The notes beneath the pieces were generated by a model that worked only from the letters and a program-made list of their open reading frames with translations, had not been told where the DNA came from and did no database searches. Shown piece by piece: positions 12,506 through 44,800 of a DNA stretch of 64,000 nucleotides (position 1 is its first letter; each line of letters begins with the position of its first letter). Origin of the DNA: a virus; the IMG/VR virus record IMGVR_UViG_3300037245_000888, positions 1-64,000 of that record; one strand, 5' to 3'. The position numbers and the translations under genes were made by a program.

Positions 12506-13660
12506 ATGGGAAAGATGTCAAAATATGAACTTACATTAGTTAAAACCTATGTAAGCGATTGGGGCGTAGTAGAAGGCATGAGAGAGTTGTTTCAAAATGC
12601 ATGTGATCAAGAGATAGTCGATACAACAAATAAAATGTTTTATAAGTATGACGAAGATAATGAAGTTTTTCAAATAGGAAATTTAAAATCCGTACTAGAG
12701 GTTAAATCTTTATTACTAGGAATGTCTACTAAAAAAGATAATGAAGAAACAACAGGTAGACATGGTGATGGATTAAAAAGTGGCATACTTGCACTAATTA
12801 GAGATGGTAAAGAAGTAGTTATTTATAATTATGGTAAAAAACAAGTATGGAAACCTAGATTTGTTAATTCAAGAAGATATGGTGAAGAGATTCTTACTTT
12901 CTTTGTGGAAGAGCAAAACATATGGAATCCAGTTCCTCATAACAATTTAGTTATTGAAATAAAAGGTATAGACTCTGAAGAGTATAAAGAAATTAAAAAG
13001 ACGAATTTACACATTGAAAGACCAGATGATTTTATAGAAACTCCAAGTGGTAATATCTTATTAGACAAAGAGTACGCCGGCAAAGTATTTGTAAATGGAT
13101 TATATGTGTGTAGAGCTGATGAATTTATGTATGGATATGATTTAAAACCAAAATATATAAAGCTTGATAGAGATAGAAGGGCAGTCAGTAATTGGGATTT
13201 AAAATTAATTACAAGACAAATGTGGTTAGCTCAAGGAGATGATCAAAATTATCGTATTAGAGCAATGGCTAAAGTGAACAGTATGGATATATCTGGTATG
13301 GAATACGTTAGTAAAACTAATATGACTGAAACATATACAGATTCTTATGAGGAGTTTGTAGAAGAATATGGTGATAATGCAATGCCAGCAAGCTATTCAG
13401 ATTACAATGAAGTAAAAGAACAATATCCAGATGCAGAAATAGTTTCTGTTAATGAATCTGTAAAAGAATTGATTACTAGGTCAGCAGCTTATCAGATTAA
13501 ATCAACCACATTAAGAGTTGAAATAGTAAAGACATCTGAGACATTGGAAAACTGGAGAGGTGAATTGTATGACTTACTAGAAGGAACAAGTTATGAGCTA
13601 TCATCTGAAATGGAATCAAGAATGGACGATATATTAGAGAAAGTTAAAGAAATGGAATAG
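12506..13660 (+). CDS. GHKL (HATPase_c-like) ATPase domain protein
   Basis: N-box RELFQNACD, G2-box GRHGDGLK. Confidence 0.75.
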   Translation: MGKMSKYELTLVKTYVSDWGVVEGMRELFQNACDQEIVDTTNKMFYKYDEDNEVFQIGNLKSVLEVKSLLLGMSTKKDNEETTGRHGDGLKSGILALIRDGKEVVIYNYGKKQVWKPRFVNSRRYGEEILTFFVEEQNIWNPVPHNNLVIEIKGIDSEEYKEIKKTNLHIERPDDFIETPSGNILLDKEYAGKVFVNGLYVCRADEFMYGYDLKPKYIKLDRDRRAVSNWDLKLITRQMWLAQGDDQNYRIRAMAKVNSMDISGMEYVSKTNMTETYTDSYEEFVEEYGDNAMPASYSDYNEVKEQYPDAEIVSVNESVKELITRSAAYQIKSTTLRVEIVKTSETLENWRGELYDLLEGTSYELSSEMESRMDDILEKVKEME

Positions 13661-13668
13661 GAGGAATT

Positions 13669-14832
13669 ATGAAAGTAATATGCGTAGAAGATTATTTAAG
13701 CACAAGCAGAATATCAGTTGCTGTAGGAGATATATTGGAATGTGAAGGTGATAAGATTCTTAAAAACGACACTTGGATATGCGATATTAATAGTCCATTT
13801 GGCGAAAGGTACTTTGAAGAATATCACGAAGCGATTAAAAGTAATTACAACAATCAACTAACAAAAGAAGAATCAGATCATGTGGCACATACTTTAAACG
13901 AAAAGGAGAGTAATAAAATGAATGTAATTAAAGCGGTAAAAGAACTAAACATTGATACAAAAATATTAAAGTCAATTGAGCAATATATAGTTGACTCTGA
14001 TACTGTTAGATTAACACCTTCTGGATTAGCTATTGATGGTAAAGTTTTCTCTAGAAAGACTGAACAATTATTGGACGTAAGAGGTACAGAACTACCATTG
14101 GATATTCCTGTTGGATTCTGTATTCCTACTGATGCAAGTAATATTGCGAAAGGTGATATTATATATAATTCTGAAGGTAAAGCTTTCCATGTATTGTATG
14201 TTAATGAGAAGACTTTTGGCACATTTAATAAAAAGAAAACTCCTAAAGAAGTAATCTGTATTTCACCTAATGAAGATAGAAAGATTACAATGATACCCAC
14301 TGTAGATATATTTGGTAATCAAGTTTATAACAAATTGATCACACCATTTAATTTTGATATGGGATGTAATCCTTTATTAAATGTTGCTGCAGTATTAGGA
14401 ACGAGTATTATTAATAAAGATATTAATTCTGCTATTGATACCCTGTTACCACAATCATTAAAGTTGATTAGTAAGATTGATTTAAATGCTATAACTAGTG
14501 ATAAAAGAGTAGTATTCTTAAGTCCATTATTGATATTCTTATATAAAATGAGTAAAGATAAAGAGTTTGACTTGAATAGTGTTAAAGATTATATTTTCAA
14601 TATAGACAAGAAAACAAAGATCTTAATCGTTCTTGCATTAGCAATGGTATTATACATATCAAAAGATAAAATTGCAGAATTGATTATGTCAGACAGATTA
14701 GATAGAATTCCATTGGTAAATAAAGTAAGTAAGCCATTAGGTAGATTGCTGGTTAAGATACCTAGTGTAAAGTTGAGTGTGATTAAAGGATATAGTGATA
14801 GAATTGTTGGTATGTTTAAGAGTGGGGAGTAA
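13669..14832 (+). CDS. hypothetical multi-domain protein with a C-terminal hydrophobic segment; probable second in-frame start at 13918
   Basis: 387-aa ORF; internal AAAGGAG plus ATG in frame. Confidence 0.7.
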   Translation: MKVICVEDYLSTSRISVAVGDILECEGDKILKNDTWICDINSPFGERYFEEYHEAIKSNYNNQLTKEESDHVAHTLNEKESNKMNVIKAVKELNIDTKILKSIEQYIVDSDTVRLTPSGLAIDGKVFSRKTEQLLDVRGTELPLDIPVGFCIPTDASNIAKGDIIYNSEGKAFHVLYVNEKTFGTFNKKKTPKEVICISPNEDRKITMIPTVDIFGNQVYNKLITPFNFDMGCNPLLNVAAVLGTSIINKDINSAIDTLLPQSLKLISKIDLNAITSDKRVVFLSPLLIFLYKMSKDKEFDLNSVKDYIFNIDKKTKILIVLALAMVLYISKDKIAELIMSDRLDRIPLVNKVSKPLGRLLVKIPSVKLSVIKGYSDRIVGMFKSGE

Positions 14833-16435: not shown

Positions 16436-16442
16436 TAATAAG

Positions 16443-16474
16443 TAAAGTTAGTCTTAAATGATTAGCTTTATTTT
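16443..16474 (+). terminator. intrinsic terminator ending the + strand array
   Basis: TAAAGTTAGTC / GATTAGCTTTA hairpin plus TTTT. Confidence 0.65.
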
Positions 16475-17627
16475 ATTGTCTGGATTATACCACATACAAA
16501 ACTACCATATTTGAATAAATTAATAAGTTATATGGTGATATGCTGCTGATCATATATAAATAGATTGTTTGTTAGATATTATATAATGTTATCGATATAG
16601 ATGTTAAATAAGCTTGTGAGGATAGGCTGTGAGAGGATTTAAATGGAATGTGGATAGATAGTATCAGAATAATATAGAGTGGATTGTATAGGGTTATAGA
16701 GCTGTTTAAATAGGTTAGTTAGTTTAGTAACTAAGTGATATAGTATATAGTCTGAGTTAGATATGTTGGAAATACTGGATTGTTATGGTCTGTGGTATGG
16801 AAATATGATGGAGTGGGTAGAAATGTGGATTTGTTACTTATATTTGGATAATGTGAATATATGTTGGAATGTGTTAGATATAGTGTTAATATGTGTTAAT
16901 GATGTGTGAGTATATGGTAAATAGAAGGTAATAAGGTGTAAATGGAAGGATGTGGGAATAGAGTGGTATATGAATGGAAGGTAGTGATAGTAATTGTTCG
17001 GAGAGTATGTATATGTTAAATATAGTGATTAGGATAGGGTAGAATGATAGTTATTAGGATTATGGTGTAATTGTATAGGATGGGTATAGATATAGTGTGA
17101 GAGGGTAAATTTGAGGTTATGTAGGGTGTGATGGATATTGTAGTAGTGTGTTGGGAATATTCGTGTGATAAAAGTAGATTTGATTGTTTGGATTAATATG
17201 ATTAGTAGGGAATTATTGGAATATTGTATAGTTGAGATAGTATTGTTATATTGTGATCTGGATTGATATGTAGTGATATAGGATATGAAACGCTAAAAAT
17301 TTTAGAAAAAATAATGGAAAGTTGTGTAGGGATGGGAAAGGTGAAAAAGTGTGAGATGTAAAGGTAGGGGTGGGTTGTGGGGTGATATGGATATAGTTGG
17401 ATTGAGTTGAGTAGGATGTAATGTGAATGTAATGGTATTCTGTGGAACAGTTATGGAATAGTCTACTTAGTAAATCTGGGCGAATGTCAAAGGTGGTAAA
17501 TATTGTAAACTACCCCCTATCCCTTGCCATTGGTAGATTCTGGATAATATGGAAAATTATATTATATATTCAATATGACAATTAAGTAATCCCAACGATC
17601 CCAGAAACATCCTAATATATGTCAGCT

Positions 17628-17656
17628 ACTTCACATAATATGGTATTATGTAACTT
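17628..17656. other. dif-like tyrosine recombinase site
   Basis: ACTTCACATAA-tatggta-TTATGTAACTT, compared with B. subtilis dif ACTTCCTAGAA-tatata-TTATGTAAACT; spacer is 7 bp rather than 6. Confidence 0.5.
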
Positions 17657-17903
17657 CAATATTAATCTCATTATGAGACTGATAACAACTGATCCAGCAG
17701 CAATATACCATAAATTACCATATTATCAATTAATAGATAAATCTCCTAATATCTACCATATAATAGATAAATCAACATATTATCCATATTATGCCATATC
17801 CTACCCATATTTTACCATTTTCCATTATTTTACATTAATTGTTAGTTTCGCCCAATATTCGGCATACCTCGTTATACGAGCTTTCTTATAACACTAAGAA
17901 TGT

Positions 17904-18262
17904 ACTTATCAATTGATAACTATAATTTCATCTAACTACCCCACTAACAAATAATCCTATCTAACTATTTAATTAATATTAACCTTATATCATATCTATC
18001 TAACTATATATAAATTATCAAACCAATTAGAATATCATCTAACTGTATCACTATATCACCTATGTTAGACTGCTATCTAACTACCATATTATACTTATCA
18101 TTTGACAACTATATCCAATCACCACCACTATACTAAGTATATACAATGTATATACAATCATCCCATATGATCCCATATGATCCCATCCCATAACATAAAA
18201 CAATACCTATACCAAACTTATGTTACAACTATTATTCATGTTATAGGATCATATAGGATCAA
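17904..18262 (+). repeat. phased short repeats
   Basis: ATCTAACT at 17930, 17959, 17998, 18037, 18075; a 21-mer at 17904 and 18093 (2 mismatches); tandem GTATATACAAT x2, ATCCCATATG x2.7, ATAGGATCA x2. Confidence 0.75.
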
Positions 18263-19616
18263 TCACTCACATATAACACCAATCAACCATATCCTACTAT
18301 ATCGCCTGTATTCCCTCTCTATTCAATTATACATAACATGCTATCAATAACACCAATAACTAAATAACTATCAATATACCTTACACCTATGTTATATCAA
18401 CGCTTATGCATGATATACAATACCTATCTTATTATAGCTACCATATAACAGGATCACTATATTATAATATATACTGTTAACGTCTTATAAACTACCTGTA
18501 ATCCCTTTACAATCTAATCAATACAATAACGCCTTAATAACATAGTAATCACCTTACAACCCTATATAATGCTATACATAACCTAATCCAAGACAATAAA
18601 AAAAAGAATACCATTTCTGATATTCTAATATTAACTTTATTCTATTTATTGAAATACTTTTCTACTATTAATTCACACATACCGAACCCAAATCCTTCAC
18701 CACAAACAATTTTATATTTTTTATTAAAGAAGTCAGACACCTTTTCACTTGAACCATAATTGGTATAATCATTATCTTTTCCATATACAACCCAACTCCA
18801 AGCACCGCCACTTAATTGATGAGTACCAGCGTATGTCCTTTCAATAACAGGGAATAAATCAAGGTTTTCACATTCCTTTAATATCTTAACTAATTTTATA
18901 GCATTTTTTGTTATGCCATACCTTTGATTACAATATCTAAATGCATGATAATTTAATAATATTCTTCTATCCCATTCGCCAGTCAAATAGTTATCTCTAA
19001 CCCATTTTACTAATACTTCATCACTTTTATTAAATGATATTCTTAAATCCCTTAAAAGGTAATCAAGTGCTAAACTAACAGGGTAATTATTATTCATTTT
19101 TAAAGTCTCCTTCTATAATTGTATAGTCTTCTTCATCTTCAATAGTCCACTCTAAATCGCATATATCTCTAATATCAGCCCATTTAGTATGCTTTTCATT
19201 TTCCCATATAACTATAAATTTTTCTGGCATTTCTTGATTAAAGAAGTTTAAAGCAACTTTCATAATTTTATCATTTAAAGCTTTTTTCTTTTGTTCATCT
19301 GTTTTCTTTACTGTTTTAACTTCTATCATAACAACATTATCAGAATCTACATGTTGAAATAAATCTTTATCGTCAATTACTAACCAAGTAGGAATATATA
19401 AATCATTGTCAATCTCTTTAGTCAAACTCATAGCTACATATGAGAAATACTCTTTTTTATTCGAATACAAGATACTGTTATTTTCTCCAACTTTAAAACC
19501 ATATGCTTTATCAGTAGTAATATAACTATTTCTGTTTACTTTATAAAACGCTTTTTTCATGATGAACTCCTTTATAGTTGTTTTGTTTCCTTCTATTAAA
19601 TTACTTGCTTAACGCA

Positions 19617-19645
19617 AGTATAATCCTATATTATTAGTTTGTCAA
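19617..19645 (-). promoter_or_regulatory. sigma-A promoter
   Basis: TTGACA-17-TATACT on the reverse strand. Confidence 0.8.
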
Positions 19646-20801
19646 GTATATAACATTAACTTGCATAATAATTAATATAAACGTATTATATCCAATTTAT
19701 TACATTTATAAGATCATCTATCATATAACTCTATATATCACTTCATAATCAATCTATAACCAACCTAATACAATAACAACCATCATCAGGCAAACCCTCT
19801 CACAACGTAAAAATAGAGCCATACAATATCATTATGATACCATACGACTCTATTTATATTTACCATTTCTCGCATCTACTACCATGTCGAGTATTATAAT
19901 TATTACAATTTATAAAAGTACAAAATAATCTAGTGTCAAACTTTCCCTCAATTCCATCGTCACATATTACAGTTATCTTATCAGGATAAGACGTTAATCT
20001 AATCCATTTATAATTATTACCCTTTGTAAGTCTTTTTTCATTTGATACACATTTTATAAACTTTGTTTTATCTAATGGATGTATCCCTGTTATTGAGAAA
20101 GAACGATTATATTTTTCTAATTCATAGTTTAAATTACCATTACAAATCACATTAGAAACCATCTTATTTCCTCCTAATATTTTTTACATTTTCCAAGTAT
20201 CTCACATAGCATTATTGGTTCAATTTTATTATATCCTAACTTATCAGCACATTCATTCGATACAATCAAACCATCACTATATAAATCAAATGATGATAAG
20301 TCAACACAATCCCAGACATGCTTATTAACTTTATTATATCCTATTATACGTCTACCATTAAACCAAAAGTCATATTTTGAGGTTCTCAATATCATATTTT
20401 TATTTTTAAGTAAATACATCATACAATTAATAGTTCCTTTTAAATTCATAGTTCCCACCTCCTTTCTGATTTACTTTTCTTTTATTTCCATCCATATCAC
20501 CTATACGAGATAATAAACTTTCTTCTTTCATTAGTTCCCATAATTTATTTTTTAATCCTATTTCATTTCTACCACTTACACTAATATTCATTTTAACTTT
20601 TTTATAAAAACATGTCCAAACGTATCCTGTTATTTTACCTTTATATTTTAATACTATTCTTTCTATTTTGTAATTATCTACGCTATATATTAAAATTGAT
20701 TTTCCTAAATATCGGTTATATGCTCCAATATTAATATTATATCTAATATTCATAATTCCCATATCCTTCCAATCGATACCAACTAACTTATATCATCTAT
20801 T

Positions 20802-20830
20802 ATACTATACCTATTATATATAAATGTCAA
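20802..20830 (-). promoter_or_regulatory. sigma-A promoter
   Basis: TTGACA-17-TAGTAT on the reverse strand. Confidence 0.7.
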
Positions 20831-21993
20831 TAACTATTTAAAGAAATACCTTAATCAATACACCACCTAATCAATCCCCTATATTCCCATAACCATTCCA
20901 CTCACTAAAACCCTATACAATCCCACTACAACGCCTTATAATCAATTAACACTATTATCCCTATGTTATCGTATTACCCTATCAATTATAAACCCTTACA
21001 AAGCCATTTAATAAGATATGATTATCAATTTATACATTCAGCAGCCAACCACCTAAATTTTACCATATTGCAGCTAAGCATATAATAGACATATTAATAG
21101 GATCAATCCTAACGTAAAAAAGAACCCTATATAATAATAGAGTTCTTAAGTTTGATTTATAACATTGCTTTAATTTCTTCTCTTAATCTTTCAACAACAC
21201 CAGCCCAATATTTTAAACCGTGAAAATTTACTGACACATTCTCATTTTCTAAAATCGCTAATACTGCATTTTTTGCCTCTTCTAATTCTTCAAATAACTT
21301 ACTCATCTCATACACTCCAATCATATTATAGTTAGTTTCATTTATTTTAATTACTATTTAAGTAATATATCGGTGATCCCCTCAAATGCTTCATGAACAC
21401 CAAAACCATTAAATATTATTGTATTCAATTCTACAAGACTACCATCCCAACTTGATTCATCAAGACCAAACATTTTTCTAATCTCATCACTCATAATAAT
21501 ATCACCACAAGTTAATACTAAACTTAATACTGCACAATCTGTTTTAACACCAAAATGAGTGAATTTCTCATTTACAGGTTTTTCAGTAATGTCCCAACCT
21601 AATTCATCTATTCTATTAATGATTGCGTTCACTGCTAAATTTACCCCAACCTTATCAGACATACCCATATAAGTCGGATGATACAAAACTTGTTCTAATT
21701 CCTTTACGATATTAATATTTTTCATTTTAAATACCTCCTTAGTATTTATAGTTAGTTAACTACTTCACTCACTCATCTAATGTAAAACAATATCATAGTT
21801 ATTTTCTACCTCAATTATAGCTTTAATACTTGCGTGATCCTTCCATTTTAAAGATATATCACTACCTAAATGAAAGCATTCACAAGGTAACATATTTTTA
21901 ATTATATATCTTAAACTTACAACCATATCATGCGACTCGACTTGTTTTACATATATTTTTAATAGATGCTTAAAAGTCATTTTCTTCATCTCC

Positions 21994-22296
21994 TTAATTA
22001 GAATAACATTTTGAAAGTTTAGGTACAAACATATTAATAAAACAAAAGTTTCGTCTATCAATAAATATTTCAATTCCCATTACGTCATGTTTAAAGTCAT
22101 AGCTATCAGCGTTTAATAACTCATATAATTTTAAATTAAACTCACTATGAGCCAGAAGTAAATCCATTGATAAACCTTTTATATCATTATCCAATTTACA
22201 ATCTTTTAAAATTCTTAATGCTATCTTTTTAATCAATTCTAATGTATTGTTATCCACGTTTAAAAAATCATATTTATCTTTAATTTTGTCACTCAT
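21994..22296 (-). CDS. conserved phage/MGE hypothetical protein
   Basis: MDLxxxH...LL.AD..DF.HD..GI...IDR...F.P pattern recalled from a widespread uncharacterised family; GGAGG RBS. Confidence 0.55.
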   Translation of the reverse strand: MSDKIKDKYDFLNVDNNTLELIKKIALRILKDCKLDNDIKGLSMDLLLAHSEFNLKLYELLNADSYDFKHDVMGIEIFIDRRNFCFINMFVPKLSKCYSN

Positions 22297-23223
22297 TGTT
22301 TATACCTCCAATTTTATAGTGTTCAATTATTCTTAATCTCACAACAAACAATAATCACAAATGGTATTAATATAATCAATCCCATAAGTATTATACATTT
22401 CATACTCTATACCTCACAATCCTTTACATTATCAAAATACAGTTTAAAATCCACTATCAAACTATTTACAATATCTAAATCCAGCTTATCAAATAACAAT
22501 TGTCTCCACTCAAAACATATTGTATCGATATCGCCTGTTAATCTATTCTCTAGCATTTCGAGAGGTGTAAATACTTCACTAACGCATAGATGATTAATAT
22601 TATATATATAACAAATATCTTGTATATACTCGTTATCGGGATAATCAATTTTAGCTTGATCCACTAGTTGAATATATAAGTCTTTAAATGTCATGCTAGT
22701 GTCAAATCTCACAATTTTAAAAGGTGCTTTCGTCTCATCATAATCAAACTTGCTAATCTCGAATACTGTTTGATCCATTTTAAAACTCATGTAATCATTT
22801 TTAACTTGTTCAATTGTCTCATGTGAATGTATATTAATTACAATAAAGCTACAATATTTATGATTCTTTTTAGTGTAGAAATTTATACAATAATATTTAC
22901 TCATTTTATATACCTACCTTCATATTTACATAAGTTGTTTAAACTATACCTATTACTATCATTCCAATCGGTAAACATATAATAATACATATGCTTACTT
23001 TTGTGTCTGCTGATAATTTCTTGATCCTATTAACCAATTTATTAATCATCTTATAATACTTTAGTAATATACGTCATACATTCATCATATGAACCACTTT
23101 TCAATAATGCATCTGTATTGCTATATACATAACTTTTACCGTCTTCAGTTAATATTGTAAATCTACTTACTCTAGTTTTAATTTTACTCATTTTATTACC
23201 TACCTTTTTATAGTTTAGTTAGT

Positions 23224-23595
23224 TTAGTTTAATACTTCAGTTTCAATTGCTTCATACTCTATTAATAGAGTGCTTTCTAGATTATCCAATGTTAAACCTT
23301 TTGCAACACTACCAAAGTTTTCAGAACTATAATAACTTACTGCATCAATAGCCTTTTGAGTATCGTTTGACATATCAGTATCACAATAGCTTTTTACATC
23401 ATCCCAATCAATCCAATCGTCAGAGATATCAATATATAAATCAAATAGTAAGTAAGTTTCTGCATCATCATCATAATTAGTTTTAAGAATATAATAACAG
23501 TCTTCTAAAGTATCTTTCTTTACTAAAATTATACCGTGCTCCAAACTAACATCACCAAAATTCTCATATCCGTTTATAACTTTTAAATCTGTCAT
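23224..23595 (-). CDS. acidic small protein (DNA-mimic candidate)
   Basis: AAAGGAG RBS before ATG at 23595; about 29 D/E versus 7 K/R in 123 aa. Confidence 0.65.
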   Translation of the reverse strand: MTDLKVINGYENFGDVSLEHGIILVKKDTLEDCYYILKTNYDDDAETYLLFDLYIDISDDWIDWDDVKSYCDTDMSNDTQKAIDAVSYYSSENFGSVAKGLTLDNLESTLLIEYEAIETEVLN

Positions 23596-23674
23596 TTTGC
23601 ACGCTCCTTTAATCCCTTGAAAACTCACTAAACAATTTTAGTAAGATTATGAAGGAATTAACCTTCATTGTTAA

Positions 23675-24313
23675 TTAATTAATTCTATAAATATAATAAG
23701 TTTCATCATCTACTACTTCGGTATTTTCATTTCCATCATAAGATGCTAATGTATGAGCGATTCCATCAATAGAAATACATTCTTCAATAGCTTCATCCCA
23801 ATCAATCAAGTTGTTATTTTTTGCGATTTCTGATAACTGCTCTTCTCCAAAATTATCTCTATACCATTCTACTGCTCCACCTTGATAATCGCATAAGTAG
23901 TCAAGAAAATCTTCTTCGGTTGTGCAGTTAGCTTCTTCCATTTCTTCAGTCAATCTATTTGTTTCGTTCCCTTCTTCATCTTCACAACAATCTTCTTCTC
24001 TAATATCATTCATATAAAACTCATATGATTCTCTCATAGCATCCTCGAACCATTCTTCATTTAAACAGTTGTTAATAATCCAACTTTGGAAACCTTCTGA
24101 AAATGACTGAAGTCCCATATCATCAATTAAATTATGAATGGATTCTATTGCAAGCTCTTCTGCTTTGTCTTCTGTCACAACTAAATACTCGCATCCTTCA
24201 AACTCGATAACATCATCACTGTAGCCTTCTTCTGGAAAATCAATATCAAGTAAATTTTCTGTGATTGTGTAGCCTTCCATTTTTAATATTACTATCATTT
24301 TCTCATTTAACAT
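23675..24313 (-). CDS. highly acidic protein (anti-restriction/DNA-mimic candidate)
   Basis: About 60 D/E versus 7 K/R over the last 201 aa; C-terminal DG.AH.LASYDG.E...YYIYRIN; start codon uncertain. Confidence 0.7.
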   Translation of the reverse strand: MLNEKMIVILKMEGYTITENLLDIDFPEEGYSDDVIEFEGCEYLVVTEDKAEELAIESIHNLIDDMGLQSFSEGFQSWIINNCLNEEWFEDAMRESYEFYMNDIREEDCCEDEEGNETNRLTEEMEEANCTTEEDFLDYLCDYQGGAVEWYRDNFGEEQLSEIAKNNNLIDWDEAIEECISIDGIAHTLASYDGNENTEVVDDETYYIYRIN

Positions 24314-24417
24314 ACCATACCACCTTTTCAAATCCCTCAAATTTAATCCCATTGATTAAACTCTTATTAGTAAGTATAAACTAATTGGATCAACTGCTTA
24401 TACTTACCGATTAAAGT

Positions 24418-24576
24418 TTAAATGTTATTAATGTAATCATTTAATATTGTTTGTGCGTTTATTCTTCTATGCAGTTGTTGGCATTCTTCAATTGTGATAT
24501 TACCACTTAAAGCATTTTCAGTTGCTTGTAAATATAATTTATGAAGTTGTTCATTATTCATTGTTTTAATAGTCAT
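24418..24576 (-). CDS. 52-aa hypothetical protein immediately downstream of the hammerhead
   Basis: AAAAGGAG RBS; MTIKTMNNEQLHKLYLQATENALSG...; below the ORF-track cutoff. Confidence 0.7.
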   Translation of the reverse strand: MTIKTMNNEQLHKLYLQATENALSGNITIEECQQLHRRINAQTILNDYINNI

Positions 24577-24597
24577 TTGTGTGATCTCCTTTTAGTT

Positions 24598-24655
24598 TGT
24601 CTCATCAGTGAATAAGTAACCAACTTATACAGACGGTTGTTAGACCGTTTCGACA
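24598..24655 (-). ncRNA. type II hammerhead self-cleaving ribozyme
   Basis: RNA reads UGUC-GAAA-CGGU-cuaaca-ACCG-UC/UGUAUAAGU-ugguu-ACUUAUUCA-CUGAUGA-GACA: complete core (CUGAUGA, GAAA, GUC cleavage triplet) with three pairing stems. Confidence 0.9.
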
Positions 24656-24739
24656 TTTTTAATCAATCCAAACATCATTTTTTAAAAAATTTTTATTCCA
24701 TTCTGATAACGCTTTTTTATTTACCATGTTTTCCTCCAG

Positions 24740-25087
24740 TTATCCCACTATGTACATATTGTACGGCATTGGTAAATCATAATTTTCATATGCTTTATTA
24801 TCCAATATTCTAATTACTTCATTTGACCAAGTCCCGTTTGACACTTCATATATAATACCTTTTTCAGTTACTATTGTGTAATCATTAACATTGCAAAATA
24901 TTTTAGTTTTCTTAATTTCTTCTTTTATTGAATCGTTTTGATTCCATGTACAAAACTTACAAGTTTCATGTTTTGGAGTTTCTCCATATTTTTCAAAGTG
25001 TAATAATAACATTTGTAAATAGCCTTTATAATTAATAGAATTATTTTTCTTTAATTCTTCCAATACCTCAACTTTAGTTTTCAGCAT
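24740..25087 (-). CDS. hypothetical protein, first gene of the early operon
   Basis: AAAAGGAG RBS before ATG at 25087. Confidence 0.7.
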   Translation of the reverse strand: MLKTKVEVLEELKKNNSINYKGYLQMLLLHFEKYGETPKHETCKFCTWNQNDSIKEEIKKTKIFCNVNDYTIVTEKGIIYEVSNGTWSNEVIRILDNKAYENYDLPMPYNMYIVG

Positions 25088-25152
25088 TTTATTTTCTCCT
25101 TTTATTCTCAAACAATACTAGACAATTCTAGCACTCTATAGAAAATAAAAAT

Positions 25153-25172
25153 TATTCAGTTTTCAATGTTCT
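25153..25172 (-). promoter_or_regulatory. boxA-like antitermination element
   Basis: AGAACATTGAAAACTGAATA resembles the Firmicute rrn-leader boxA (GTTCTTTGAAAACT-like); preceded by small GC-rich hairpins in a long leader. Confidence 0.6.
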
Positions 25173-25247
25173 GCGTTCGCTTGCATACTTCATGCCCTAA
25201 ACAGTAACATCCTACCTTAAGGCTATCATCACGACAGGCTTGCTCTG

Positions 25248-25276
25248 AGTATAATCAATTAAAGGTACTATGTCAA
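25248..25276 (-). promoter_or_regulatory. sigma-A promoter driving the early operon
   Basis: TTGACA-17-TATACT on the reverse strand. Confidence 0.8.
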
Positions 25277-25312
25277 TTATAAGCTATGCAGTGTTTCCAA
25301 TGGTTTCATGGG

Positions 25313-25828
25313 TTATCCACAGATTGCAGCAATGGGATCAAAAGCAGCTATATCAACGGTTACAAGTGATTTACTAAAATAGTTATCAACAGATTTCATT
25401 ATTTTAAAACAAAAGTTATCCACAGGTAAAATAGATTTTATTGTTTTACTTATATAGAAGAAAGATATCAATTTTTAGACTTTTGAATCCTTGTATAGTA
25501 GGCTATGACTGGTATGCAGCCATTTTAAATTATGGGAATATTTATTGATCTTTAAATTGTTATAAAATAAATGGTAAAATGTGGTAGAATAATTAAGTTT
25601 AATTAATTGTATAAAATCTATTGACAAATAATATATAAATATGGTAGAATGGGCTGACACCCTTTTAAAGTTGTTTGTAATTTTAATGTTATTAACAGTT
25701 GTGGATAACTTTTGTGGATATGTGGATAAAATGTGGATAACTTCTTGAAATTGTGGATAACTCATGATATACTCTATTTAGGGTTAGTTATCCCCAGAAA
25801 CTGGGGATAAAAATAAATCTGTGGATAA
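25313..25828. promoter_or_regulatory. DnaA-box cluster
   Basis: Perfect TTATCCACA at 25313 and 25416 (+) and at 25700, 25721, 25732, 25752, 25820 (-); one-mismatch copies at 25383, 25713, 25788, 25802. Confidence 0.88.
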
Positions 25829-26850
25829 CTTGAAAACTGCATATAATAATTGTAAAATTGACATAATCTCAAAATTGTAATCATTACAGATAAACAGTTT
25901 ATGTCAATCTAATTGTAATGATTACAAATTTATCACGATATCAATATTCACATTATGAGTATAAAATAATAGTTGGATATCCCACTAGATAAACATAAAA
26001 TCATTTTCCATAATATGTTAAACAGAAAAAATTTATCCAAAAATTTACCAAATATTGGTAAAAATCAATTCTGAAAATCCCATATTTACGAACCCAAAAA
26101 TTTCCAAGAACACGTGAAAGTAAATTGCAGCCTCAGACATATCTCTCCCACCGGCCACGCACACCTCACAATATATTTCCTTACCGGTAGCAAATCTTTC
26201 TATCATATAATCTACACAATATATTCTCATCTCACCAACACAACATATCTTAACAATCCACTCTGCTCATCTCCAATCAATCCTCACAATCCCATATCTC
26301 ATCTGTCTCCTATACTATCCCAGAATACCCATCTCACCACATTTGTCCACTATACAATCTATCCACTCAATAAAACTGATCGTCTCCACTGACATCATCT
26401 ATATCACATTTCCAATCTCGTCACATATTCTACCTATTAATAGTGACCAATCATGCACATAACAGAATATATACCTAGATTACATATTTGTTCCATTACA
26501 ACAAAACTAATCACACACTACCCTAAACAACTTACATAACTATCTCACTTGTACTCTCACAACACCGATCAAGCACCGTCATAACAATATATCGATAACA
26601 TGATGCTAATTATCCATTGAACGATAACTGTGTTTATATGCTATGTTATGTGTGTCACATGGGTATGAAAGTTTAATTGAGATTGCTGCAGGAATTATAT
26701 AGAATATTAGTTTATATTGTTTATAGGGTTTTGTTTAAAATTAAAATTAGAAATGAAATAAGAGTTCTCGGTGGGTAGGTAAACGCATATCTGGGTGTGG
26801 AAAGGTGGCATGGGGTATTTTGGATAAACTAAATAAATCAAAACTAATCC

Positions 26851-26879
26851 TTGACATCATATTAAATGTGGTGTAAGAT
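26851..26879 (+). promoter_or_regulatory. sigma-A promoter starting the right-hand + strand region
   Basis: TTGACA-17-TAAGAT. Confidence 0.7.
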
Positions 26880-26922
26880 ATGAAATATAGGAATGTAAGA
26901 TAAACTATAAAGGAGAGAATGA

Positions 26923-35097: not shown

Positions 35098-35197
35098 CTC
35101 TTGCACTCTACTATCTCCTGTGGTATCATTAAATCAGAAGTTAAGATAATTAAACAAACAGATCACAACAAACAATAATAATATAGTGGAGGTAGTT

Positions 35198-36076
35198 ATG
35201 AGTGAGAGTATGTTAATTAAATCAAATTTGGTAGATGGTTTCGTGAGCTTCAAAATTAAAATTAATGTATTAGATAAAACAATATCAGAATATAAAGCAA
35301 GTGTAGATAAATTTATCATTTGGTTACAAGATCAGGATAATGCTAAACTTGACAAGTCATCTACTGATAATATGTTGGTAAGTGTAACTCGCAAGATAGC
35401 GCAATCGTATGTGTTTGTAATTAGAGAGACATTGAAATTTAATAGCACTAAGAAAGCGATAGCAGGTATTCTTCAACTTTACAATTTTATCATGATGGAA
35501 ATGGATTTACTTGGAAATGCTTTTAGTGGATTACAGGTGCCAAAGGATAGTGTTACTGAAATTAAAGAATACATTTCATTAAAGGAATCTAATATAATAT
35601 TAAATTCATGTGAAAGTACTCAACACAGATTACTAATTGGACTGGCTTTTAAATCTGGATTAAGAATTCAAGAAATTTCTAAAATTGAAGTCGCTAATAT
35701 TGATTTAGAAAACAAAACGATTGATGTATTGAGAAAAGGTAGACGTATGCGTAGATTAGATATTGCTGCTGAATTAATTAATGATTTAACTATTCAAGTT
35801 GAGAATTGTAATGCACTTAATCACACCTTCTTATTTCAAGGTAGAAGAGGTATTAAGCCATTGACAACCAAATCTATCAGAGATACTTTTGATGGTTATC
35901 TTGGCAAACTAGACTTGAATTCTGACTACGTATTCCATAGTTTAAGAAAGGTTTATAGTACAGATTTATATTATAATGAGAATAAGACAATGCATGAGAT
36001 AAGTAAATTATTAGATCATAGTAATACCGGAATTACTGAATTGTATGTTTTGGATAAGAAGTATGTTGAGCTATAA
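35198..36076 (+). CDS. tyrosine recombinase, XerC/D-sized
   Basis: GLRIQE, RKG, HSLRK, LDHS, TELY catalytic residues; own promoter TTGCAC-17-TATCAT at 35101-35129. Confidence 0.88.
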   Translation: MSESMLIKSNLVDGFVSFKIKINVLDKTISEYKASVDKFIIWLQDQDNAKLDKSSTDNMLVSVTRKIAQSYVFVIRETLKFNSTKKAIAGILQLYNFIMMEMDLLGNAFSGLQVPKDSVTEIKEYISLKESNIILNSCESTQHRLLIGLAFKSGLRIQEISKIEVANIDLENKTIDVLRKGRRMRRLDIAAELINDLTIQVENCNALNHTFLFQGRRGIKPLTTKSIRDTFDGYLGKLDLNSDYVFHSLRKVYSTDLYYNENKTMHEISKLLDHSNTGITELYVLDKKYVEL

Positions 36077-43759: not shown

Positions 43760-44800
43760 ATGCAAGCCTATGAATTAAAAGAGTATCTATCGAAGAACGA
43801 AGATCAAGTTGTAAGAATTCTAGAAGATTTAGGTATGCATCATATAAATACAAGCCATCATAAGCATATCTCTTGTGGTATGCCAGATGGTGACAATCCA
43901 TCATCTACGGTGGTTTATAAGGATAATATGAAAGTTAGAGCATATACAAGAGACTTAGGAAATAAGGAGAATGGATCAGATATATTTATTTTGATTATGT
44001 TTGTAAAAGGTATAAGTTTTCCGAAGTCTGTCAGATATGCACATAAATTATTGGGTATAAAATTCACATACTACAATGAGGAAATGAACGAAAACAAAAT
44101 TGATTTATTGTCTAGATTCAGGAAAATAAAGAAGAAGAGGGATAGAGCGTATGATTACGATACTCATCCAGAATTCATATTAAATAAATATGATCCATTA
44201 CCACATGTTGATTTTATAAAAGATAATATATTGCCCAAATCTTATAGAAAGTATGACACTAGATTTGATTGCTTTAGTCAAAGAATAATATTAACACACA
44301 GAAAATGGGATACAGGCGAGATATTAGGATTCTTTGGAAGAACAACTATACCAAATTGGGAAGAGTTGGGATTACAAAAATACATAGGTATTATGCCATT
44401 CGACAGAGGTGGTAACTTATATGGCCTTGATATAAATTATGAAGCTATAATAAAGGCTGGCTATGTAGTGGTATTAGAATCTGAAAAATCTATTCAACAA
44501 GCAGATTCATTTGGAGAAAATGCTACATGTGCAATATGTTGTGCTGATGTAACAAGAGAGCAACGTAAAATATTATTAAGTCTAAATGTTGATATAATAT
44601 TTGCATTCGATAAAGGTATATCATTAGAGCATATAGATTTAACATGTAAACCATTCTTAAATAAGAGAAGAATTTACTACATTTATGACAATGATAATAT
44701 GCTGCAAGACAAGGAATCACCAACAGATAATGGAGTAATAATATATGAAATGTTGTTATCTGAAAAAATAGAATATACAGGAGAAATTAAGGAGATATAA
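43760..44800 (+). CDS. DNA primase (TOPRIM)
   Basis: GRT, KY, NLYG, VVVLESEK, IIFAFDKG; follows DnaB. Confidence 0.82.
   Translation: MQAYELKEYLSKNEDQVVRILEDLGMHHINTSHHKHISCGMPDGDNPSSTVVYKDNMKVRAYTRDLGNKENGSDIFILIMFVKGISFPKSVRYAHKLLGIKFTYYNEEMNENKIDLLSRFRKIKKKRDRAYDYDTHPEFILNKYDPLPHVDFIKDNILPKSYRKYDTRFDCFSQRIILTHRKWDTGEILGFFGRTTIPNWEELGLQKYIGIMPFDRGGNLYGLDINYEAIIKAGYVVVLESEKSIQQADSFGENATCAICCADVTREQRKILLSLNVDIIFAFDKGISLEHIDLTCKPFLNKRRIYYIYDNDNMLQDKESPTDNGVIIYEMLLSEKIEYTGEIKEI

Follow-up and report, generated by a model that had tools for sequence, protein, structure and literature searches.

What is a compact block of small leftward genes doing between two rightward arms of a phage genome, bordered on either side by gene-free DNA of extreme composition, and what purpose is served by the cluster of binding sites for the host initiator DnaA at one of these borders? 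The question is raised by the IMG/VR virus record IMGVR_UViG_3300037245_000888 (111,832 bases), the first 64 kilobases (kb) of which make up the window studied here, and concerns in particular its stretch from 16.4 to 26.9 kb. A sequence-only reading of this DNA had taken a position at ~17.5 kb for a physical end of the genome and the block beside it for a long terminal repeat or first-step-transfer module of the T5 or SPO1 type. The analysis described in the following leans against a long repeat of this type and favours an early-gene arm beside an origin or control region. Specifically, we propose, with a probability of about one half, that the block is a leftward early-gene arm read from a divergent control region, that this region recruits host DnaA and that it is most likely the phage origin of replication, with a convergent insulating spacer beyond.

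The control region corresponds to the gene-free zone on the right of the block (25112-26922, 1.8 kb), which lies between the leftward block and the rightward replication arm and is built as follows:

25313-25424, plus strand: left group of DnaA boxes, two perfect and one with one mismatch, all on the plus strand
25521-25650, plus strand: AT-rich core, with a rightward promoter TTGACA-18-TAGAAT carrying a TG extension at 25621-25650
25700-25828, minus strand: right group of DnaA boxes, five perfect boxes on the minus strand and an inverted pair of one-mismatch boxes at 25788-25810
25873-25929, minus strand: operator-like palindromes, two copies of TTGTAAT(C/G)ATTACA 38 bases apart, around a leftward promoter-like site at 25907-25880
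26090-26600, unstranded: G-depleted tract, 33 G and 157 C
26600-26922, plus strand: G-rich leader before the first gene of the replication arm, with promoter-like sites at 26677-26705 and 26851-26879

The oppositely oriented DnaA boxes that had been noticed at this end of the block are indeed there: seven exact copies of TTATCCACA fall within the 516 bp from 25313 to 25828, two on the plus and five on the minus strand. These are seven of the eight perfect boxes of the whole 111.8-kb genome, in which the reversed control pattern of the box does not occur at all. Five sites with one mismatch (25383-26041) bring the sites with at most one mismatch to 12 in 25313-26041, a clustering of the kind that characterizes an oriC-type origin (neighbouring boxes less than 100 bp apart). 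Over the window, 44 matches to the DnaA box are counted, as compared with 28.2 +/- 5.4 in shuffled sequences. In all, eight boxes make up the right group, five of them perfect and three near-perfect, with most on the minus strand; the group is adjoined by the GC cluster GGGCTGACACCC (25649-25660). The AT-rich core between the two groups reaches 85% AT over 120 bases (25521-25640), with a genome mean of 69.6% (standard deviation 6%, 60-base windows), and ranks in the top 0.1% of the 60-base windows of the genome; by its composition, it may be the unwinding element of an oriC-type origin. In Bacillus subtilis, DnaA is held stably only by densely clustered boxes, and the phage array is as dense as the DnaA-holding clusters of that study (PMC2533591). 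Furthermore, DnaA-box arrays are a recurrent feature of viral contigs: three or more co-oriented perfect boxes stand in a row in at least 120 contigs of IMG/VR, in several cases less than 100 bases from the contig end; some of these contigs may be host-derived.

The opposed boxes around the 85%-AT core, the promoters pointing into the array, the operator palindromes and the divergence from the replication genes, which begin 1 kb to the right of the array, are the grounds on which the array is likened to an origin. From this arrangement we infer that the array binds and recruits host DnaA, and that the block is transcribed leftward, and early, from the 1.8-kb region, the replication genes being transcribed rightward from its other side. 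The likeliest job of the bound DnaA would be the opening of an origin for the DnaB-like helicase, primase and PolIII-alpha of the phage itself, and the next likeliest the coupling of early transcription to the DnaA state of the host. Were the array an origin, a phage endowed with a full replisome would borrow the initiator of its host, tying its own replication to the growth state of the latter.

The block that would be read leftward from this region is organized in three transcription units, each with a promoter or promoter-like site and a terminator. Its features, from right to left, are:

21157-25276, minus strand: unit 1, promoter TTGACA-17-TATACT (25276-25248), about 11 genes including peptides of 36-55 amino acids and a DUF6874 protein
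23675-24352, minus strand: acidic protein of 225 amino acids (212 from an inner start), isoelectric point 4.05, member of a widespread phage family, function unknown
23224-23628, minus strand: acidic protein of 134 amino acids, isoelectric point 4.05, phrog_3460 / phrog_12969, function unknown
21994-22296, minus strand: DUF6874 / phrog_12453 protein, by library match, function unknown
21120-21147, minus strand: terminator between units 1 and 2, z-score -5.5
19860-20830, minus strand: unit 2, weaker promoter-like site at 20830-20802, three basic proteins of 94-111 amino acids
19812-19854, minus strand: terminator between units 2 and 3, 21-bp hairpin, -22.9 kcal/mol, z-score -6.75
18642-19645, minus strand: unit 3, promoter TTGACA-17-TATACT (19645-19617), two genes for 156 and 151 amino acids
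18596-18626, minus strand: intrinsic terminator closing the block, 9-bp hairpin followed by U8, z-score -2.2

About 16 minus-strand open reading frames (ORFs) of 36-225 amino acids, most of them preceded by ribosome-binding sites of the GGAG type, make up the block, which bears out its description as a set of small minus-strand genes with micro-peptides. In the proposed scheme, 18.6-25.1 kb would be an early-gene arm, the three units of which are transcribed by the host RNA polymerase and closed by a terminator, and its small, mostly orphan proteins would most likely target the host or the host defences. The near-consensus host promoters that had been given as a mark of the block exist in so far as two TTGACA-17-TATACT sites stand upstream of its genes, but promoters with 11 of 12 matches are not enriched in total (15 found versus 10.3 expected), and similar host-type promoters are also present at 471, 5003, 39358, 55153 and 63273. 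Being spread over 0.4-63 kb, such promoters do not single out the block.

In PHROGs, no named family is matched by any of the 16 block proteins, and in Pfam and PADLOC none by the 10 largest; the only family matches are phrog_12453/DUF6874, phrog_3460 and phrog_12969, and the other proteins are orphans. The two very acidic proteins singled out earlier share the isoelectric point given above. The larger one has more than 50 homologues, on phage-like metagenome contigs, and a predicted structure with a predicted local distance difference test score (pLDDT) of 91. It has no match in Pfam, PHROG or PADLOC and no sequence match in PDB; in searches with its fold, Foldseek returned nothing at E<=0.001 and the best VIA-align hit (Z 5.6) was no convincing PDB match. 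At 70 IMG/VR loci with homologues of this protein, neither another block gene nor a DnaA cluster was found. Its position, size and charge allow no more than a reasonable guess at a role in anti-defence or host takeover. The two genes of unit 3 are kept in order on one distant 3-kb metagenome contig, which has no strand-skewed tract.

As for the dense RNA signals ascribed to the block, strong terminator hairpins are present but no Rfam family is matched, either in 16-27.5 kb at E<=1 or in the whole 64-kb window at gathering score, so that the description shrinks to terminators and one hammerhead-like fold. The latter (24590-24662, minus strand) lies between two small ORFs of unit 1 and combines CUGAUGA and GAAA cores with three stems in a hammerhead-like three-way junction. 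The junction is part of the minimum-energy fold, with a z-score of only -0.75, and gives no Rfam hit at E<=1.

Beyond the block, towards the left, lies the second gene-free zone (16436-18641, 2.2 kb), in which no credible ORF, transfer RNA (tRNA) or Rfam match is found:

16443-16481, plus strand: intrinsic terminator closing the rightward early arm, hairpin of -15.5 kcal/mol, z-score -4.0, followed by a U-rich run
16600-17450, unstranded: C-depleted tract, 16 C versus 262 G in 851 bases, no credible ORF
17451-17540, unstranded: composition flip point of 90 bases, 17 C and 18 G (100-base profile)
17541-18595, unstranded: G-depleted tract, 68 G versus 235 C as counted over 17541-18641

The analysis confirms both that the block is bordered by two gene-free and compositionally extreme regions and that the skew flips at ~17.5 kb, from 16 C and 262 G to 68 G and 235 C. 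Each of the two convergent arms is closed by a terminator immediately behind its last gene, so that the 2.1 kb between these terminators lie outside normal transcripts. The G+C content of the tracts is near the genome mean, which means that G has replaced C, rather than that C has decayed to T, and the strand-pure composition points to selection or to a tract built from motifs. Two short motifs, GATATAGT and GTTAGATA, are common to both tracts, in inverted orientation. A third one, ATCTAAC ((C)TATCTAACTA), forms an array of five copies at 17930-18081, 29-39 bases apart, in the G-poor tract, with three inverted copies (GTTAGAT) in the C-poor tract, and is a possible protein-binding array.

The zone would act as a spacer between two convergent, terminated arms, and we infer two further roles from its composition. 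Read-through RNA entering the far tract would be C-rich, G-poor and untranslated, i.e. of the kind terminated by Rho; and, as a strand without C cannot carry palindromic sites containing G or C, the tracts would be free of nearly all restriction sites of this class. Kilobase tracts with G on one strand only are a recurrent trait of gene-free gaps in this phage lineage. Three candidate features of the zone were dropped. A giant palindrome at 17.5 kb is ruled out, the inverted matches not being symmetric about the flip point. A dif-like site at the flip point was abandoned when only the XerD-type arm resembled the dif site of B. subtilis. The inverted 14-mer ATGTTATCGATATA (16586-16599, with its reverse complement at 26588-26601), which brackets 10 kb, has a length within the range of chance, 19% of shuffles reaching 14 bases; only the positions of the pair, at the outer edges of the skewed tracts, are curious.

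Several observations weigh against the scheme as a whole. After the GC cluster GGGCTGACACCC, no run of four or more in-phase trios can be read from the sequence that would correspond to the DnaA-trio, defined next to a GC cluster for Firmicute origins (PMC7561715). The distant relatives TR-TP2, a Thomasclavelia phage, and pCD1602_4 have no DnaA-box cluster, so that the array is not a conserved origin of the lineage. The skew switch at 26.6 kb is inseparable from the direction of transcription, and kilobase tracts with G or C nearly confined to one strand are more than a terminator needs.

The lack of an evident DnaA-trio, and the absence of the array from relatives sharing the replisome, would suit an array that serves instead either as a DnaA sponge halting host replication or as a DnaA switch gating the divergent early promoters by the growth state of the host. 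Relative to the rightward promoter (25621-25650), boxes are found downstream, at ~+45 to +170, and the leftward promoter at 25276 has boxes ~40-150 bases on its upstream side; in B. subtilis non-origin clusters of DnaA boxes bind DnaA stably and regulate neighbouring genes (PMC2533591). Such a function in place of an origin is unlikely, however, given the origin-like combination of an 85%-AT core between opposed boxes, a minus-to-plus skew switch and adjoining replication genes, while a sponge would have to contend with the fact that one copy of about 12 sites titrates little DnaA until the phage DNA multiplies.

Where the packaged DNA begins and ends is the point on which the other two explanations differ from an early-gene arm beside an origin. 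The two ends of the record are identical over exactly 127 bases, and no further repeat of more than 60 bases is present; the record is a circle of 111,705 unique bases, joined by the assembler through a k-mer overlap. The block is present in it once. As the same circle would result from a terminal repeat that had collapsed, the assembly cannot decide on the genome ends.

It is plausible, although less likely than the scheme above, that the ends lie inside the convergent zone (16.5-18.6 kb), with a short direct repeat of hundreds of bases or with cohesive ends, in which case the mirror tracts would be end-adjacent DNA and the block the first coding DNA. The zone is gene-free, has terminators on both sides and a mirror-symmetric composition, contains the shared inverted motifs and the five-copy ATCTAAC array, and, on each side of the flip point, the strand that would end 3' there is G-rich and C-poor. 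A short repeat is also what the terminase would suggest: its matches are 23 phage records, with 24-28% identity over 40-55% of the protein, all but one (a Microcystis phage) of the Slash/Basilisk group, and Slash is annotated with a terminal repeat of 567 bp. In Slash, however, the repeat occupies a divergent junction that precedes the terminase gene by ~13.7 kb. In the present genome, with the terminase gene at 97936-99750, this position would correspond to the divergent region at 240-700, which lies ~12.2 kb upstream of that gene, rather than to the convergent zone. The similarity to the Slash terminases is itself low and partial, and almost nothing else is shared with Slash, which makes the terminase analogy weak.

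The explanation given by the sequence-only reading places the end of the packaged DNA at ~17.5 kb and makes the stretch from there to ~26.1-26.6 kb a long direct terminal repeat that enters the cell first, with the DnaA boxes at its inner edge pausing injection, as proposed for T5, during expression of the leftward genes. The order of elements is that of the T5 left repeat, i.e. end, spacer, small genes with host promoters, untranslated DnaA-box region and repeat end (10.1101/866236), and the main leftward promoter (25276) is end-proximal to most boxes, so that it would be inside the cell during the pause. In full, the idea would be that a phage of Firmicutes, equipped with an SPbeta-type replisome and a YonO-like polymerase, enters in two steps in the manner of T5, a repeat of ~9 kb (17.5-26.x kb) going first: membrane-bound host DnaA would hold the DNA at the box array, the leftward genes, including those of the two acidic proteins, would disarm the host before the remaining DNA enters, and, owing to the strand-pure tracts near the end, the DNA that enters first would lack palindromic restriction sites. 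Should the array be a stop signal of this kind, inside a terminal repeat, two-step entry as in T5 would also occur in a Gram-positive lineage unrelated to it.

We consider both the long repeat and the two-step entry quite improbable. Library scans of the block found no homologue of dmp, A1, A2 or of a named host-takeover protein; the closest terminases, weakly as they match, come from phages that package with a short repeat; promoters of the host type are also found at genes from 0.4 to 63 kb; and the DnaA array is absent from relatives with the same replisome. The boxes, moreover, form one origin-like cluster, not pairs 3 bp apart in two 131-bp inverted repeats as in T5, where the DnaA model is itself only a proposal.

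The circular assembly that a collapsed repeat would give is the one observed, and a distant relative indicates that a block of this sort is separable. Thomasclavelia phage TR-TP2 (PQ571310) is a 101-kb circle closed by a 141-base overlap, and TR-TP1 (PQ571309), 99.98% identical to it, differs only by lacking 11.3 kb of leftward small genes, its record ending exactly at the borders of the missing segment. One of these borders lies 8 bases after the -10 box of a leftward promoter. The other, left border falls within a low-complexity coding repeat. The difference between the two records could come from a long repeat, from trimming, or from a mixed lysate that contained a deletion variant, and the paper describing both phages gives no termini (PMC12694917). 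A repeat alone, on the other hand, makes no branch in the assembly graph, and the break in TR-TP1 fits deletion polymorphism or trimming at least as well.

Closer relatives are scarce. The phage collection contains no DNA match to the record; IMG/VR, searched with the RIIB-like, acidic and polymerase proteins, contains no close relative, and one terminase fragment of 37% identity; and scans of metagenomes for relatives returned nothing, or one distant 3-kb contig. In cluster look-ups, a second, fragmentary strain and a Logan contig of 66,296 bp were seen to exist.

Returning to the early-gene arm and its control region, their place in the genome can be described as follows. The genome (G+C content ~30%) consists of four strand blocks, in each of which the GC skew tracks the direction of transcription; per kb, it ranges from +0.26 to +0.56 in the first 18 kb and from -0.26 to -0.60 at 18-25 kb, and is positive again from 27 kb:

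0.7-16.4 kb, plus strand: rightward early arm, 36 small genes including a RIIA-like one, with three intervening minus-strand genes at 9.7-11.1 kb
18.6-25.1 kb, minus strand: leftward block under study, about 16 small genes
26.9-65.6 kb, plus strand: replication arm, with ligase, tyrosine recombinase, OB-fold protein, AAA_24, DnaB-like helicase, primase, PD-(D/E)XK nuclease, PolIII-alpha, RecD2, UvrD and anaerobic NrdD
65.8-111.7 kb, minus strand: late arm, with lysis, tail and head genes, terminase (97,936-99,750), metallophosphatase and an 873-amino-acid protein

The gene assigned to the primase (43760-44800) aligns with the annotated DNA primase of TR-TP2 (gp24) and has no Pfam family match itself. 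The 873-amino-acid protein of the late arm (phrog_8308; genome positions 106,830-109,451, minus strand) matches a TR-TP2 gene annotated as ‘RNA-dependent RNA polymerase’ and is probably, judging from this match, a single-subunit RNA polymerase of the YonO kind, its gene lying upstream of the late genes. The late arm is served by no host-type promoter with 11 of 12 matches and a perfect TTGACA.

Some further genes deserve mention in their own right. The RIIA-like protein of the rightward early arm (12506-14832, plus strand) matches phrog_6077 with an E of 3e-73, elsewhere annotated as RIIA or as a histidine-kinase-like ATPase, and the gene that follows it, for 387 amino acids, may encode a RIIB-like partner. 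The small tyrosine recombinase (35186-36076, plus strand; Phage_integrase, E 2e-22), which could be an integrase or a multimer resolvase, is encoded within the arm for nucleotide metabolism and replication, a position that it also has in TR-TP2 and Slash. The other large gaps of the genome, in the late arm (102,766-103,283 and 106,173-106,484), are accounted for by RNA genes, namely tRNA-Ser, tRNA-His, a tRNA the anticodon loop of which is odd, and a skipping-rope RNA (54 bits versus a gathering score of 36.7); no tRNA or skipping-rope RNA is found in the gene-free zones at 16436-18641 and 25112-26922.

The locus can also be compared with known systems. The Bacillus phages of the Slash group have the nearest terminase large subunit in the phage collection and also possess a tyrosine recombinase, but the identity is 28% over about half of the terminase, the repeat is at a divergent and not at a convergent junction, and the other genes are unrelated.

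T5 is the model for the stalled first step. As the sequence-only reading had stated, its injection-stop region holds DnaA boxes, the role of which there is a proposal; they are consensus and near-consensus boxes, including TTATCCACA, TTATCAACA and TTATCCCCA, and occur as four pairs, 3 bp apart, in two 131-bp inverted repeats (IRD'-spacer-IRC' and IRC-spacer-IRD) with 52-bp spacers (10.1101/866236). The left terminal repeat of T5 resembles the present locus in that its small genes have host promoters and give way to an extensive untranslated region, rich in repeats and containing DnaA boxes. Here, in contrast, a single opposed box cluster surrounds an AT-rich core and no pair of 131-bp inverted repeats exists; the terminase and virion genes are unrelated, homologues of dmp, A1 and A2 were not found, and the host is a Firmicute anaerobe.

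The host-takeover module of SPO1 lies within a terminal redundancy of 13 kb. It shares with the block the many short genes in several units, the strong host-type early promoters, the good ribosome-binding sites and the terminators, and differs in that the block genes all have one direction; library scans, which included no direct comparison with SPO1 proteins, gave no named match that would relate it to SPO1 genes 37-60.

TR-TP2 offers a parallel in overall organization, although only 15 of 152 proteins match, with 21-42% identity, no block gene is shared with it or with TR-TP1, and it has neither a DnaA-box cluster nor a rightward arm or convergent mirror zone beside its block. Common to both genomes are the order of the replisome genes (DnaB-like helicase, primase, PD-(D/E)XK nuclease, PolIII-alpha, RecD-like helicase and NrdD), a late arm with YonO-like polymerase, metallophosphatase and terminase, the tail genes, and the succession of leftward small orphan genes, a gene-free gap of over 1 kb (1.2 kb in TR-TP2) with G-over-C skew and a rightward replication arm.

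Finally, unlike the origins of Firmicute chromosomes, the array has no dnaA or dnaN neighbours and no clear DnaA-trio, and it belongs to a phage with its own helicase, primase and polymerase; what it shares with Firmicute oriC and the non-origin clusters (PMC7561715, PMC2533591) is a dense set of perfect boxes, spread over both strands in ~500 bp, next to AT-rich DNA, and a skew that turns from minus to plus.

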